From Candidatus Shapirobacteria bacterium (GTDB taxonomy: Bacteria > Patescibacteriota > Microgenomatia > UBA12405), in NCBI GenBank assembly GCA_041659325.1, contig JBAZYN010000001.1, positions 430,819 through 494,818 on the forward strand: a stretch of 64,000 nt of DNA. Reading direction: 5' to 3'. Shown here one piece after another: positions 6,731 to 56,411 of this stretch. Position 1 is the stretch's first letter; every line of letters begins with the position of its first letter. The notes below the pieces were generated by a model that saw nothing but the letters and a program-made list of their open reading frames with translations, made no database searches and had not been told where the DNA came from. Both the position numbers and the translations under genes were made by a program.

Positions 6731-6802
6731 TAGTCACAGTAAAAGTCTCCCTTGTCAAAGGGAGATTTAGAGGAATTAAAATATTATTTGTTATAATTCC
6801 CC

Positions 6803-7900
6803 ATGCTCACTCAGCCTACTTTTATCCCGGTCGGTACCCAAGCCACCGTAAAATCCCTGACCCCTTGCGAGCTTTCAGAAATCGGGGTCGAAATATTTTT
6901 TTGCAACACCTATCACTTATATCTTCGCCCGGGAGATCGGGCCATCAAAAAATTTGGCGGTCTACATAAATTCACCCGATGGGACGGCCAAATTATCACT
7001 GATTCCGGCGGTTTCCAGGTCTTTTCCTTAGGCAAAGAGCATAATGGCGCCGGTAAACTTACAAAAATATCCGAAGACGGGGTAGAATTCCGCTCCCACC
7101 TCGATGGCTCCCTCCACTTTTTAACCCCCGAAAAATCAATTCAAATCCAGCACAATCTGGCCGCCGACTACCTAATCGCCTTTGACGAATGTACCCCATA
7201 TCCGGCCACCAAAAAATACGCCACTCAGGCCCTGGATAGGACTCACCGTTGGGCCCTCCGGTCTCTTTTAGAGCACTGTAGGCTCAATAAAAAGCTAAAC
7301 CAAAATTTAAAATTATACGGCGTTGTCCAGGGTAGTTATTTCAAAGCCCTCCGCCTTCAATCTGCCGAATTTATTTGTTCGCAGGATTTTGACGGCATCG
7401 CCATTGGCGGAGTATCGGTGGGCGAACCAAAAAACAAAATGCGCGATGCAGTTTCCTGGGTTATGCCCACGGTTTTAAAAACCAAAAAATCAATCCACCT
7501 TCTTGGGGTGGGGGAGATAGATGACCTTTTTGATTTCTTTGGTATGGGCATCACTTCTATGGACTGCACCATGCCCACCCGTTCTGCCCGGGCCGGTCAA
7601 TTTCTAAACCGGACAGGTGAGGCAAAACACGATCTCAAACAAAGGTTTTACAATCAAATAATTAACAAAAAATATAAAAAGGATCAAAGCCCGTTGGATT
7701 TGGAATGCCAGTGTTATTCCTGCAAAAATTTCGATAGAGCCTATATCCATCATCTTTTCAAAACCCAGGAACTTTTAGGCTATCGGCTGATGACTCTCCA
7801 CAACCTAAAATTTATGATCGATACCACCCAAAAAATAAGAGATGCTTTAAAAAATGGGACATTTGACAAGCTAAAATATTCCTGGCTTGGTAGGCCTTAA
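6803..7900 (+). CDS. tgt: Queuine tRNA-ribosyltransferase
   Basis: Conserved Tgt motifs ([13 protein letters not shown]) and the C-terminal zinc site CQCYSCKNF...H. Confidence 0.9.
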
Positions 7901-7902
7901 CT

Positions 7903-53183: not shown

Positions 53184-54317
53184 ATGTTTTCTCCCATCTT
53201 TTCAATCAATAACAAAATTCTAAAAACCATCGGGGTTATAGAAGGGGCAAAAGCTGTTATCGATGATGCTCCGTTAATTCCTGCCTACGAAAAACAGTTT
53301 CAGCAAGAGGCTGTTGTCCGCACTGTCCACTATGGCACCAGAATCGAAGGTAATGACCTAACCTTCCAAGAGGTTTCCCGCCTTGTCGAAGGTCAGCAAA
53401 TTACCGCCGGCGAAAGAGATATCCAGGAGGTCATCAACTACCGAAACGTTGTTTCCTACCTCGAAGAGCTCTGGTCTCTATACGATGCCAACCTGCCGCT
53501 TCCCGAAGAAAGAAATATAGCTTCAGCCGGCACCGAAGAAAAACGGCCGTTTTTTTACAGCGAAACCATTGTCAAAAGAATCCATCAGCTCACCACCACC
53601 AAAGTCATTCCCGAGACAGAGCTTGGGAAATACCGCCACCAACAGGTAGTTCTAAAAAACACCCGTACTGGCGAAATCGCCCACCGTCCGCCACCCGCCA
53701 TCGAAGTCCCGTATCTGATGACCGATTTAATAGACTGGCTCAACGATCCCTCCGGCCGGGAGATCCACTCCGCCATTCGGTCGGCTATCTGTCAATACCT
53801 TCTGGTTGCTATCCATCCATTCATCGAAGGCAACGGCCGTGTCAGTCGGGCTTTTGGCATGCTTCCTCTTTATGTCGAAGGTTACGACATCCGCCGTCTT
53901 TTCTCCCTCGAAGAATATTTTGACCGCAATGCCGAAGAATACTACGGTACTATTCAGGAAACTCACAATCTCTCCTCCGACATTTTCAAAAGAGACCTCA
54001 CCCTGTGGATTGAATACTTTGTTCTGGCTCTGAGTATCGAATTAAGCCGGGTAAGAGAAAAAGTTCAGACTCTCTCTCGCGATATCAAGTTAAAACAAAA
54101 ACTCGGCGGCAAACAGCTCCACCTTACCGAACGTCAGATTAAATTGGTTGAATACATGCAACAATTCGGCGGTCTTCGTATGCCCGACGCCCAAAGCCTC
54201 CTTCCCATGGTCTCCGACGACACCATCTGGCGAGATCTCAAAAAACTAGTCGACTCCGGCGCCATCGAGAAGCGCGGTTCCACCAAAGGCGCCTACTATT
54301 GCCTGGTTGATGTCTAA
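53184..54317 (+). CDS. Fic family protein
   Basis: The canonical Fic motif HPFIEGNGRVSR, plus a C-terminal winged-helix region. Confidence 0.85.
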   Translation: MFSPIFSINNKILKTIGVIEGAKAVIDDAPLIPAYEKQFQQEAVVRTVHYGTRIEGNDLTFQEVSRLVEGQQITAGERDIQEVINYRNVVSYLEELWSLYDANLPLPEERNIASAGTEEKRPFFYSETIVKRIHQLTTTKVIPETELGKYRHQQVVLKNTRTGEIAHRPPPAIEVPYLMTDLIDWLNDPSGREIHSAIRSAICQYLLVAIHPFIEGNGRVSRAFGMLPLYVEGYDIRRLFSLEEYFDRNAEEYYGTIQETHNLSSDIFKRDLTLWIEYFVLALSIELSRVREKVQTLSRDIKLKQKLGGKQLHLTERQIKLVEYMQQFGGLRMPDAQSLLPMVSDDTIWRDLKKLVDSGAIEKRGSTKGAYYCLVDV

Positions 54318-54419
54318 CATCATTGCCACTCGGTTTAGCAGGAGCAACAAGTGTTCTCCCTTGTCAAAGGGAGAATTAAAGAGGGATTTTGGCTGTAAGG
54401 TTTAAGCTATAATCACTCA

Positions 54420-56411
54420 ATGATCACCCTCGACACCCTCGATCTCCAACACTTGTCCCCGCAGGACTTAGGCGAGCTTCTTATCTCCGCCAAAAACGCC
54501 TATTACACCACCGGCAAGCCCATCATGGATGACCACACCTACGATACCCTTGAGGAAATTCTTCGTCAAAAAAATCCGCATCATCGGATTTTTCAAAAAG
54601 TCGGCAACAAAAATTTTGATACCGGCTTTCTCAAAAAATCCCATTCCATGCCCATGGGCTCCCAAAACAAAGTCACCACCGCCGCCGAGTTAGTCCACTA
54701 CTTCGAGCTAAAAAAAATCGCCGGAGGCAACGTTGATATGCAAAGCATATCTTACGTTGTTCAACCAAAAATCGATGGAATTTCCCTCGAAATCGAATAT
54801 AAAGACGGCAACCTAATCGATGCCATTACTAGGGGAGACGGTTTTATCGGTGACGTTATCACTCAAAATGTCGTCCGTATGCAAAATTTCCGTGAAAGAT
54901 TAAATGAGGATTTTACTGGTACCATCCGCTGCGAAATCGTCGTTACCTACAAAGATTTTAAAAAACTAAACAAAATTGTTGAAAAAAATAATACTCCCTC
55001 CCATTTTCAAGGGGAGGGTGGGGGAGGGGTTTCATACTCCAATCCCCGCAATGCCGTCTCCGGCATTTCTCAACGGTTAGACGGAAAATTTTCCGAATTA
55101 TGCAGTCTGATAGCCGTCGACATTTCCCCGGAACCGGCTTTGGAATCAGAAAAAATCACTAAACTTAAATCGCTGGGTTTCATTCCCGTCGAAACTCATC
55201 TCTGTCAAAATTTTAACCAAATCGAACAAATCTACCAACAATTTCTCACCAAAACCCGCAAAACTTATCCCTTTGAAATTGACGGCTTAATAGTCAAAAT
55301 AAATAATCTGAAAATTGCCCATCATCTTGGTTCCAAAAATAATCGGCCAAAATTTCAAATCGCATACAAATTCCCGGCCGAAAGCAATCAAACTCAAATC
55401 AAGAAAATTGAATGGCAGGTCGGTCCTTTGGGTACTATTACCCCGGTTGGTCAAGTTGAGCCAATTGAGTTGACCGGCGCTGTCATTACCTTCGCCTCCC
55501 TGGGTAATTACGATTTGGTTATTCAAAAAAACATCAATATTGGCGATATTGTAGAAATATCCCGTCGCGGCGATGTTATTCCCCATGTCGAAAAAATCAT
55601 CACCAAGGTCAACCCGGGCCATGTTGATATCCCCATCCTCTGTCCCAGCTGTCAAACTAAATTGATCAAAGAAGACAAATTCCTCCGCTGCCCCAATCCA
55701 AAAAATTGTTTAGCCCAAATATTAGGGTCTCTGCGCCTTTTTTGTGATACCCTTGGCATCCTTGGTCTTTCCGACAAAACCATCGCCAAACTCTATCAAG
55801 CCGACAAAATTCGTCTCCCGGGAGATTTCTACAAACTAACCATCGGCGACATTAGTAATCTTGTTAATCTTGGAGAAAAATCAGGCAAAAATATTATTTA
55901 CCAAATCCAAACCAAAAAAAACCTGACCCTCAAGCAAGTTTTTGATGCCGCTATCATTCCCAATTTCAGCGCCGCCCGTATTCAACAATTAATTACAGCC
56001 GGTTTCAATACCCCGGAGAAACTTTTAAATATTTCCAAAGTCGAAATTGAATCTCTCCCCGGTTTTCAAAAAACCCTGGCCGAAAAAATTCAGGCGGGAA
56101 TAGAGTTACGAAAAGAATGGTTAAAATCCATCCTCTCCCAAGTTCAGATTACCAACCACCAATTACCAGTTACCAATTACAGATTACAAGGCCTAGCCTT
56201 CGCTATCACCGGCGATCTTTCCCAACCCCGAAAAAAAATTGAAGATCTGATCGAACAAAACGGGGGATCAGTCAGTTCTTCGGTTTCCAAAAATACTTCT
56301 TACCTCATAACAAACGAAACTAAGTCAAATTCTTCAAAATTTCTCGCCGCCAAAAAATTCGGTACCAAAATCATCACCGAAACTAAGTTTCTAGAACTCA
56401 TTAACTCGTAA
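54420..56411 (+). CDS. ligA: NAD-dependent DNA ligase
   Basis: The adenylation motif KIDGIS, OB-fold, Zn finger (CPSCQ...C..C), HhH and C-terminal BRCT. It contains in-frame R1 and ATTACNN repeat insertions. Confidence 0.9.
   Translation: MITLDTLDLQHLSPQDLGELLISAKNAYYTTGKPIMDDHTYDTLEEILRQKNPHHRIFQKVGNKNFDTGFLKKSHSMPMGSQNKVTTAAELVHYFELKKIAGGNVDMQSISYVVQPKIDGISLEIEYKDGNLIDAITRGDGFIGDVITQNVVRMQNFRERLNEDFTGTIRCEIVVTYKDFKKLNKIVEKNNTPSHFQGEGGGGVSYSNPRNAVSGISQRLDGKFSELCSLIAVDISPEPALESEKITKLKSLGFIPVETHLCQNFNQIEQIYQQFLTKTRKTYPFEIDGLIVKINNLKIAHHLGSKNNRPKFQIAYKFPAESNQTQIKKIEWQVGPLGTITPVGQVEPIELTGAVITFASLGNYDLVIQKNINIGDIVEISRRGDVIPHVEKIITKVNPGHVDIPILCPSCQTKLIKEDKFLRCPNPKNCLAQILGSLRLFCDTLGILGLSDKTIAKLYQADKIRLPGDFYKLTIGDISNLVNLGEKSGKNIIYQIQTKKNLTLKQVFDAAIIPNFSAARIQQLITAGFNTPEKLLNISKVEIESLPGFQKTLAEKIQAGIELRKEWLKSILSQVQITNHQLPVTNYRLQGLAFAITGDLSQPRKKIEDLIEQNGGSVSSSVSKNTSYLITNETKSNSSKFLAAKKFGTKIITETKFLELINS

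Follow-up and report, generated by a model that had tools for sequence, protein, structure and literature searches.

What kind of element is a short hairpin repeat that recurs throughout a bacterial locus, in the spacers as well as inside genes, and always on the same strand? The question is raised by a stretch of 64,000 nucleotides of a Candidatus Shapirobacteria bacterium (assembly GCA_041659325.1, contig JBAZYN010000001.1, positions 430,819 to 494,818 of the forward strand), in the following called the window, in which an earlier, sequence-only reading had noticed a GGGAGGG-type hairpin repeat with more than 15 copies and had taken it for an element resembling a MITE (a miniature transposable element with inverted repeats) or a repetitive extragenic palindrome (REP), doubling as terminator and/or donor of ribosome-binding sites. 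Judged by their sequence, the repeats are probably class II intrastrand purine-motif triplex DNA elements of the BoxC, PIT (potential intrastrand triplex) or TM (triplex motif) type. The earlier reading missed that the tail following each hairpin mirrors its purine arm, that all copies lie on one strand and that some of them are translated in frame.

A hairpin scan combined with a tolerant scan found 13 solid copies and one degenerate copy between positions 6746 and 55032, every one on the + strand; the family is thus real and its members lie where they had been reported, although they are fewer than first counted. Exact or near-exact matches to the core TTCTCCCTTGTCAAAGGGAGAA were found at 6745/6746, 8967, 19588, 22911 and 54354 and matches to the core CCCTCCTTTCGTCAAAGGAGGG at 8000, 44230, 47239 and 47419, all of them on the + strand and neither core occurring in shuffled sequence. 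Repeat-finding groups the copies into three families (D7, D8 and D14) and adds those at 8705 and 54995. Occurrence at chance frequency, named earlier as the outcome that would speak against a family, is not what the window holds: when the count is strictly limited to elements with a perfect third strand and a perfect stem of 7 bp or more, it contains six, whereas 100 shuffles that preserve dinucleotides contain 0.03 on average. The elements measure 32-53 nt and are spaced at about one per 4.6 kb.

All blocks of an element are found on one strand. Read 5' to 3', the pyrimidine block Y comes first; a short loop, in most cases GTCA, separates it from the purine block R, to which it is complementary, and R is in turn separated by a second loop of 1-7 nt, or by a mini-hairpin of variable sequence, from a block of G, A and T (RH, for reverse-Hoogsteen). 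This last block has no fixed word but mirrors the hairpin's purine arm. The 13 solid window copies without exception, as well as 203 unique copies in the loci fetched from other genomes, parse as Y, R and RH with Watson-Crick complementary Y and R. Scoring triplets as G over G and A or T over A, a perfect triplet-compatible mirror of R lies within 55 nt downstream of 189 of the 237 informative Y-arm hairpins (window and fetched loci together); for the same hairpins a direct copy was found in six cases and a mirror copy upstream in four. Mismatched triplets number zero or one per window copy. More than 20 arm variants co-vary between the two blocks: AAGGGAGA is followed by AGAGGGAtt, AAGAGGGG by GGGGAGAtt, AAGGGGGA by AGGGGGAtt, AAGGGGGG by GGGGGGAtt, AAGGGAGG by GGAGGGAtt, GGGGAGG by GGAGGGGtt and AAAGGAGGGG by GGGGTGGAtt.

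An intramolecular purine-motif (reverse-Hoogsteen) triple helix requires that the purine arm be repeated in mirror form on its 3' side, which is the arrangement found here. On a single-stranded folding strand, Y and R would form the hairpin, and RH would fold back antiparallel to R in the major groove to give G.G-C, A.A-T and T.A-T triplets. The RH block shows T in place of A, and its terminal TT sits over the loop-proximal AA, which favours a purine motif on the folding strand over a pyrimidine motif on its complement; the latter candidate was disfavoured because the third block has T, not A, over several A positions. Conventional folding, which models Watson-Crick pairs only, leaves RH unpaired.

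Class II intrastrand triplex motifs were named BoxC in Escherichia coli, then PIT elements and then TM_ECO (Hoyne et al. 2000; Holder et al. 2015, PMC4666352). The consensus of TM_ECO is CCCTCNCCC-N3-6-GGGNGAGGG-N3-GGGNGAGGG; strain K-12 has 23 copies, all between genes, without strand bias and without a link to mobile elements, and they mark unusually variable loci (PMC4666352). As an isolated strand, TM_ECO forms a stable triplex in vitro according to circular dichroism, nuclear magnetic resonance and polymerase stop assays, and purine-motif triplexes block polymerases in vitro (PMC4666352). Ten TM_ECO sequences from the table of 23 in the same paper served as positive control and parse like the window copies under the same scoring, sharing with them TTA, CCG and CTG linkers and a G.A stem mismatch (as in the copy at 8705). 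The two groups have in common the block order on one strand, the triplet rules (G.G-C, A.A-T, T.A-T) with 8-10 triplets, near-identical multiple copies, occasional inverted pairs and variable surrounding DNA, and for neither is an associated transposase known. A first loop of 3-6 nt and a second loop of about 3 nt, the short-loop criterion of the class, are found in 11 window copies.

At the same time the differences are considerable. The window blocks (TCTCCCTT/AAGGGAGA and CCCCTCCTTT/AAAGGAGGGG) depart from the strict TM_ECO consensus, with a GTCA-type loop and A/T-closed stems in place of CCCTCNCCC...GGGNGAGGG. TM_ECO is always intergenic and unbiased, whereas here at least four of 14 copies lie in frame in genes and about 84-100% of the copies in bacteria of the Candidate Phyla Radiation (CPR) are on the C-rich strand. 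The hosts in the known literature are E. coli, other Proteobacteria and Cyanobacteria, as opposed to CPR bacteria (Shapirobacteria, Woesebacteria, Parcubacteria, Peribacteria) and Clostridia with their phages; our literature search found no paper describing such triplex motifs in CPR bacteria or inside genes. By its sequence, the window family belongs to the known triplex class but is a distinct sequence family. It also resembles the homopurine mirror repeats of H-DNA, as R, linker and RH make up a purine mirror repeat with the same reverse-Hoogsteen chemistry. H-DNA, however, arises from duplex under supercoiling and involves both strands, while here one strand supplies all three blocks, and the arms of the window family are short (8-10 nt).

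In two window copies and in most of the Clostridial ones, the second loop is itself a hairpin of 13-36 nt, a variant outside the published definition. Linkers longer than about 13 nt are hairpins of highly variable sequence (essentially all of the 76 unique spacers fold in this way), and 55 of 163 unique long linkers carry C-GNA-G triloops. According to Hirao, Yoshizawa and colleagues, this triloop is reportedly a hallmark of extra-stable DNA mini-hairpins. Such linkers exceed the 1-6-nt loop limit of the ITxF search, which presumably misses these copies. The GTCA loop is kept across stem variants, which may leave room for a protein reader. The hairpin linkers with C-GNA-G triloops, a random orientation relative to genes, the lack of an Rfam family and of a terminator signature, and the report that purine-motif triplexes do not form in RNA (PMC4666352) together suggest that the element acts as DNA and not as RNA.

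The sequence-only reading had proposed searching CPR genomes for the same element, and such a search was successful. Scanning GTDB (one genome per species) with the 18-nt hairpin gave more than 120 loci in Shapirobacteria, Woesebacteria, Parcubacteria, Peribacteria, other Patescibacteria and many gut Clostridia, in addition to some metagenome-assembled genomes (MAGs) labelled Gammaproteobacteria, and in nearly all of these loci GAGGGATT follows 4-60 nt downstream of the hairpin. In MAGs of some gut Clostridia (L102 at 5390-5643; L010, L016, L027, L070) the hairpin-linker motif also occurs in tandem arrays with a period of about 95 nt and as inverted pairs 120-160 nt apart which flank ordinary operons. 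A mobile unit between the inverted copies was considered at one of these loci (L010) and rejected, ordinary open reading frames (ORFs) and no transposon being found there. The Clostridial type of motif with co-varying linker hairpin is present on 27 viral contigs of IMG/VR as well (L130-L156; GC 0.42-0.67), one near-identical copy with the same flanks recurring on many contigs.

The second property that calls for explanation is orientation. All 13 solid window copies lie on the C-rich strand (13:0, or 14:0 counting the degenerate copy), the GC skew of the + strand being -0.05 in the first 8 kb and an unusually strong -0.2 to -0.3 from about 8 kb to the end, independent of gene strand. In the GTDB scan, CPR loci whose absolute skew is 0.1 or more have 34 motifs on the C-rich and six on the G-rich strand (p=8e-6), several of these six being partners in inverted pairs. 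An independent metagenome scan with the 32-nt A-type motif returned 125 copies divided 104:21 between C-rich and G-rich strand, or 94:18 where the absolute skew reaches 0.1 (p=1e-13), and the bias holds whether the neighbouring genes are on the same strand (24:3), on the opposite strand (28:8) or mixed (18:5). On contigs with several loci, 14 of 15 copies agree with the local skew. The element is net G-rich and is thus placed against the compositional trend, so that mutation bias does not account for its orientation. The window's three identical A-type copies all lie in the preferred orientation, which weakly favours either a bias at insertion or very strong selection. Leading strands usually hold more G than C, and by this general rule the folding strand would have the lagging-strand sequence and hence be the leading-strand template. 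Absolute skew rises to 0.4 on the related CPR contigs examined (L015, L169, L261), and on a contig of 795 kb its sign is constant at 35, 128 and 572 kb, a long stretch for one replichore.

Where do the copies stand relative to genes? The + strand of the window carries, among others, tgt, an mtaB-like radical-SAM gene, thrS, infC, rpmI, rplT, pheST, recG, nusB, rnc, rpsP, ligA and pth, and the - strand carries a 20-kb type IV pilus operon, obg, efp and a penicillin-binding protein (PBP) gene. The earlier reading had placed the copies at gene ends and in front of start codons; several do fill short spacers, but four lie in frame in coding sequence (twice in the mtaB-like gene, once in the ligA adenylation domain and once, antisense, in a prepilin leader), and a fifth, at 42697, probably does so too.

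The in-frame copies are all of the B-type, whose linkers are free of stop codons, while the A-type linkers (TTTAG, TTAAAG) contain a stop codon in one frame. In the mtaB-like gene (7903-8964), the copy at 7999..8036 (CCCCTCCTTT / CTTC / AAAGGAGGGG / CCG / GGGGTAGATTT) is translated as PLLSSKEGPGVD and the copy at 8705..8742, which has the conserved G.A stem mismatch (CCCCGCCCT / GTCA / AGGGAGGGG / CTG / GGGGAGGGTTT), as PRPVKGGAGGGF. The copy at 54995..55032 (CCCTCCCATT / TTC / AAGGGGAGGG / TGG / GGGAGGGGTT) forms a 36-nt in-frame insert (PSHFQGEGGGGV) in the adenylation domain of ligA. On the antisense side, the B-type copy at 44229..44266 (CCCCTCCTTT / CGTC / AAAGGAGGGG / GTA / GGGGTAGATTT) is in frame in the prepilin leader of 43835-44275(-), with no alternative start codon between the motif and the G/F cleavage motif. 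The copy at 42697..42749, which has perfect triplets and an 18-nt hairpin (CCCCCACAATAGTGGGGG) as second loop, is antisense to the pilin gene 42197-42772(-) and lies either just upstream of an internal ATG of that gene or translated within a long prepilin leader. Both pilin genes have start codons overlapping the upstream stop codon (ATGA) and appear to have long leaders (about 18-28 residues before G/F) made up largely of translated antisense triplex motif.

The A-type copies occupy spacers. That at 6746..6777 (TCTCCCTT / GTCA / AAGGGAGA / TTT / AGAGGAATT, one of its triplets being mismatched) is intergenic, its 3' end 25 nt upstream of the tgt ATG. The copy at 8967..9002 (TTCTCCCTT / GTCA / AAGGGAGAA / TTA / AAGAGGGATTT), with perfect triplets, lies between the convergent mtaB and obg and begins 3 nt past the mtaB stop codon. 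Two more copies are identical to it: one (19588..19623) occupies the rpmI-rplT spacer, the other (54354..54389) lies in the spacer separating fic from ligA, where 30 nt remain between its end and the ligA ATG. The copy at 22911..22955, flanked by the convergent pheT and PBP genes, has the mini-hairpin CCCCGAAAAGGGG as second loop, and its final bases overlap the PBP stop codon. The spacer between pilD and a pilin gene holds a cluster: a B-type copy at 47238..47277 (one stem and one triplet mismatch), a copy with perfect triplets at 47419..47457 (CCCTCCCT / TCGTCG / AGGGAGGG / AATAAAA / GGGTGGGTTT), 3' of which stands an orphan third-strand-like GAGGGTAGATTT at 47463-47474, and one with minimal linker at 47482..47515 (TCCCTCCCTT / TTC / AAGGGAGGGA / (A) / GGGTGGGTTT). 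The degenerate copy at 16725..16763, between a DUF5660 gene and tRNA-Val, has an imperfect stem (CCCGCCTC/GAGGGGAGGG) with the tail GGGTAGATTT and is of uncertain membership (family D14).

An AGAGGGA at Shine-Dalgarno distance had been claimed for four of these copies and is found at one. Upstream of rplT, GAGGGATTT is directly followed by the ATG at 19624, so that GAGGG falls at Shine-Dalgarno distance, and judging by this arrangement the copy at 19588 is the only one in the window plausibly serving as a Shine-Dalgarno sequence. In front of tgt and ligA, 25 and 30 nt separate the tail from the ATG and contain a TATAAT-like box, and the pilin gene at 42697 is on the other strand; among 125 other CPR copies, nine have a start codon at Shine-Dalgarno spacing. 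A general role as donor of ribosome-binding sites is therefore not borne out, nor is one as terminator: a T-run 3' of the element is absent from every window copy, and no terminator-like site was called in the window in the element's own orientation, the four weak calls being on the opposite strand. Terminator-like sites overall are not enriched (24 found against 23.3 expected; 25 against 18), and a canonical terminator stands 3' of rplT at 19988. Two further candidates were rejected, a promoter (the loop reads TTGACA on the opposite strand, but there is no conserved -10 and the flanks vary) and a tRNA-like or anticodon-arm structure (unsuitable geometry, with a stem of 7-9 bp and a 4-nt loop). 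Relative to the local operon, five of 14 window copies are antisense, and orientation relative to flanking genes is random both in Clostridia and in CPR bacteria. The gene-level effects, namely one Shine-Dalgarno sequence, peptide loops and the stop-codon overlap at 22955, look like incidental by-products.

Comparison of orthologues reveals gain and loss. At the first mtaB site, four of 32 orthologues have the B-type peptide, seven the related PLVKEGQGRLD and several others different repeat-derived peptides, while 12 are empty; the second site is filled in most of the 32 and empty in ten. Compared as DNA, the first site is occupied by another triplex subfamily in one relative (L128) and empty in a second (L129), and the element replaces the loop between CTCCC-like and GAT-TT-like boundaries, which is no simple addition. 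The closest ligA orthologue (77% identity) is without the 36-nt insert, whereas a more distant one has it, beside a 12-codon segment that is duplicated; the junctions of the empty site were read from protein and codon alignments. In the ligA orthologue P0124 (L127 4020-4200) the segment coding for SYSNPRNAAAGL occurs twice, 27 nt apart, directly 3' of the motif, a local duplication or patchwork that is in line with the reported instability of such motifs. Intergenic copies turn over as well, the same spacers in relatives holding other subfamilies or none. Where in-gene copies are retained, their DNA is conserved: between genomes, identity reaches 96% and 92% in the mtaB codons of the motif but 77% and 65% in the remainder of that gene, and third positions at conserved residues are identical in 21 of 22 and 18 of 19 cases within the motif, against 163 of 253 and 115 of 211 outside (p=0.0017 and 0.0004).

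The same loops of mtaB and ligA are hot spots for other, unrelated small repeat families (P0008, P0014, P0076, P0078, P0123, P0125, P0135, P0141), RDVARNVST, VGAQRAAPIQNV and LAPLHQGGIEGG being examples of the resulting peptides and TTLPSHQKPEKKN and CSPVSQFV of C-terminal tails; proteins of Shapirobacteria seem to be riddled with repeat-derived in-frame segments. A comparable case is that of the Rickettsia palindromic elements (RPEs), which Ogata et al. reportedly described in 2000 as inserted in frame in conserved protein genes. The likeness lies in selfish-looking palindromes standing in frame in conserved genes, tolerated in surface loops and variable among orthologues; RPEs (mentioned also in PMC3733652) differ in being simple long palindromes of about 100-150 bp from another lineage, without triplex geometry.

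Several observations weigh against a triplex DNA element whose placement is tied to replication. In duplex DNA in vivo, footprinting with dimethyl sulphate gave no sign of the TM_ECO triplex, and the search for a function of TM_ECO, be it as promoter, as terminator or of another kind, yielded none (PMC4666352). The single E. coli copies, whose replichores were assigned in this analysis, stand eight on the leading and five on the lagging strand, Clostridial loci are without detectable bias, though skew is weak there, and about 16% of the CPR copies are on the G-rich strand. The multi-locus contigs examined contain no change of skew, so that the link from skew to replication rests on the general rule, and the C-rich strand, if it is the lagging one, is unusual in carrying the translation genes of the window. 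Finally, the high identity of the in-gene copies could result from repeated re-insertion or gene conversion and not from selection.

Among the alternatives, a miniature element akin to REPs or MITEs, which is moved by a transposase (such as a Y1/RAYT enzyme, a REP-associated tyrosine transposase, acting on single-stranded DNA) and doubles as source of terminators and/or ribosome-binding sites, fares comparatively well, though we regard it as unlikely. The repeats are dispersed with identical copies, genomes differ in whether an orthologous site is filled or empty (the gain and loss at mtaB and ligA bear out this part of the earlier reading), one copy supplies the Shine-Dalgarno sequence of rplT, several stand between convergent genes (8967, 22911), and REPs lie inside genes in some species too (PMC3733652). 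REPs, BIMEs and REPINs with their RAYTs are likewise short, abundant, structured repeats which are thought to be handled as single-stranded DNA and are sometimes found inside genes without breaking the frame (PMC3733652, PMC6006769). Transposition of the IS200/IS605 type on single strands, with its targeting of the lagging-strand template, would moreover give a replication strand bias (PMC6006769).

Against these points, the GT[AG]G (or CGTC) tag at 0-2 nt from the hairpin foot, by which REPs are recognised (PMC6006769, PMC3733652), was not found: 5' flanks read AAGT, ATG, AGT or are variable, Clostridial copies have GC, and GTAG occurs only inside the third block of some B-types. MITEs would show terminal inverted repeats flanking a body of 70-300 bp and a target-site duplication; neither was noticed at the junctions, which were read by eye and unsystematically, and the only inverted repeat of the element is its internal Y/R hairpin. 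No transposase or HUH domain and no Y1/RAYT gene is present among the approximately 60 ORFs of the window. REPs are described as species-specific (PMC6006769), whereas the window family is conserved across species and phyla, and the missing T-runs and terminator calls and the few start codons at a suitable spacing speak against the two proposed side functions. The IS200/IS605 elements share an orientation tied to the replication strand and a need for hairpins in single-stranded DNA (PMC6006769), but their active strand is on the lagging-strand template, while the folding strand here appears to be on the opposite one, no tnpA gene is present among the window ORFs, and the family has no left-end/right-end pair. 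A REP or MITE leaves the mirror relation of tail and purine arm unexplained, the third block having no REP counterpart.

About equally improbable is that the host uses the element as a strand-specific DNA signal, in fork handling, recombination or the processing of imported single-stranded DNA, so that it would be neither selfish nor neutral. Strong strand bias, near-identical sequence across many species, conservation of in-gene copies at synonymous sites, a density of about one per 4.6 kb and a loop conserved across stem variants, which suits a protein reader, all speak for a signal, and so do the type IV pilus and DNA-uptake genes of CPR bacteria, which are present in the window. Intergenic copies, however, turn over between close relatives, with other subfamilies or none in the same spacer, in-gene copies are missing from many orthologues, some 16% of copies have the 'wrong' orientation, and direct tests revealed no function of the E. 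coli counterpart (PMC4666352).

A structured RNA (a cis-regulatory leader, an mRNA stabiliser or a small RNA), in which the hairpin sequesters one Shine-Dalgarno-like sequence and the tail offers a second, has very little to recommend it. The arms do resemble Shine-Dalgarno and anti-Shine-Dalgarno sequences (GGAGG / CCTCC), compensatory changes occur in the P1 and P2 hairpins, and the extended CPR stem (AAGTCTCCC...GGGAGATTT) includes one G.T pair that in RNA would correspond to a G-U wobble. Yet copies antisense to the local operon, a gene-relative orientation that is random in two phylogenetic groups and copies within ORFs in both senses do not fit a transcript. Rfam 15 gave no match, only tRNAs reaching the gathering threshold in the window; the best sub-threshold match on Clostridial copies was Acido-Lenti-1, at 22 bits against a cut-off of 37 and on the opposite strand. 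Sequestration of a Shine-Dalgarno sequence in particular was rejected, since such complementarity predicts direct, not mirror copies, and leaves non-Shine-Dalgarno-like variants such as GGGGGG/GGGGGGATT unexplained, and purine-motif triplexes reportedly do not form in RNA (PMC4666352). A switch between hairpin and G-quadruplex, with purine arm and G-rich tail providing four G-runs, is highly improbable too, for although some B-type copies have four (for example GGGGAGGGTGGGGGAGGGG at 54995 and GGGAGGGAAGGGTGGG at 47482), the full motif (four runs of at least three G in a short span) is confined to these, the A-type has just two (GGG...GGG) and yet is the most conserved subfamily, and a quadruplex does not require that A/T positions of the tail co-vary with the purine arm.

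Repeats of other kinds were seen in the window as well. A MITE-like unit of about 125 bp, whose ends are the inverted repeats CCGTCATTACGAGGAG / CTCCTCGCAATGAC, lies at 47284-47407 with triplex motifs on either side, and fragments of it lie at 16637-16648 and 16715-16726; this repeat family seems to encode the 'VIARGLPPKQSFPEDRHASLAM'-type inserts of some LigA orthologues (P0123, P0164). The 8-nt unit GACTTTWR (family D4) forms tandem arrays at 47078-47127, in the 5' part of the pilD region, and at 56407-56479, just after ligA. Between 40429 and 42199, a duplication of about 900 bp (D5, D6, D12) comprises two paralogous ORFs without known function, and in front of each stands the palindrome CAATCGAGGCGGGATCTTTCGATTCCCGCCTCGATT. 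At 39158-39405 the 451-aa ORF 38581-39936(-), which has no Pfam match and probably encodes a repetitive surface protein beside the pilus operon, contains 3-6 tandem copies of a 57-nt unit. Finally, repeat units of 110-160 nt at 21-179 and 1827-2019, which are 80-82% identical, adjoin tRNA genes, each with a hairpin such as GCAGCCACGTTTATTTGCGAAGCAAATATTACGTGGTGC.

Returning to the triplex elements, we can state that the repeat, by its sequence triplex-competent on one strand, is copied around genomes, tolerated by protein loops and held in one orientation relative to the strand asymmetry. How it does so may be pictured as follows. The folding strand would be kept off the long-lived single-stranded lagging-strand template, either because the other orientation stalls replication and is purged, or because new copies enter via the nascent lagging strand. 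To spread, the element would need no transposase of its own; the route may be template switching or gene conversion at microhomologies. That the triplex fold is itself the engine of such a transposase-free, replication-coupled propagation, or alternatively a strand-specific signal read by the host, is a speculative proposal to which we give only limited credence. In the propagation scenario, a nascent lagging strand with a fresh copy would fold, be released and re-prime at microhomologies on another exposed template, which would seed the new copy in the same replication orientation, in-frame patches in genes included.

BoxC/PIT/TM repeats have been known since the 1990s and are abundant in many bacteria, but their function and their mechanism of spreading were never demonstrated, and the literature searched pictures them as intergenic, unbiased and found mainly in Proteobacteria and Cyanobacteria. 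To this picture the window and about 250 related loci add a large family common to CPR bacteria, gut Clostridia and their phages; a strong orientation bias relative to strand composition, which links them to replication and could be tested directly on complete genomes; copies in frame within essential genes (tRNA methylthiotransferase, DNA ligase, prepilin leaders), whose DNA is more conserved than that of the host genes; and a hairpin-in-linker architecture beyond the loop limit of the published triplex search. On the practical side, these and other small repeats explain many odd low-complexity insertions in CPR annotations (PLLSSKEG..., SPRPVKGG..., PSHFQGEGGGG...). A CPR host with a small genome and with copies nearly always on one strand and even inside genes offers a new way to test the function of triplex repeats. 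Should the propagation scenario hold true, these elements would represent mobile DNA that is defined by a non-B structure and not by an enzyme, and the 25-year-old puzzle of the BoxC/PIT repeats would be explained.

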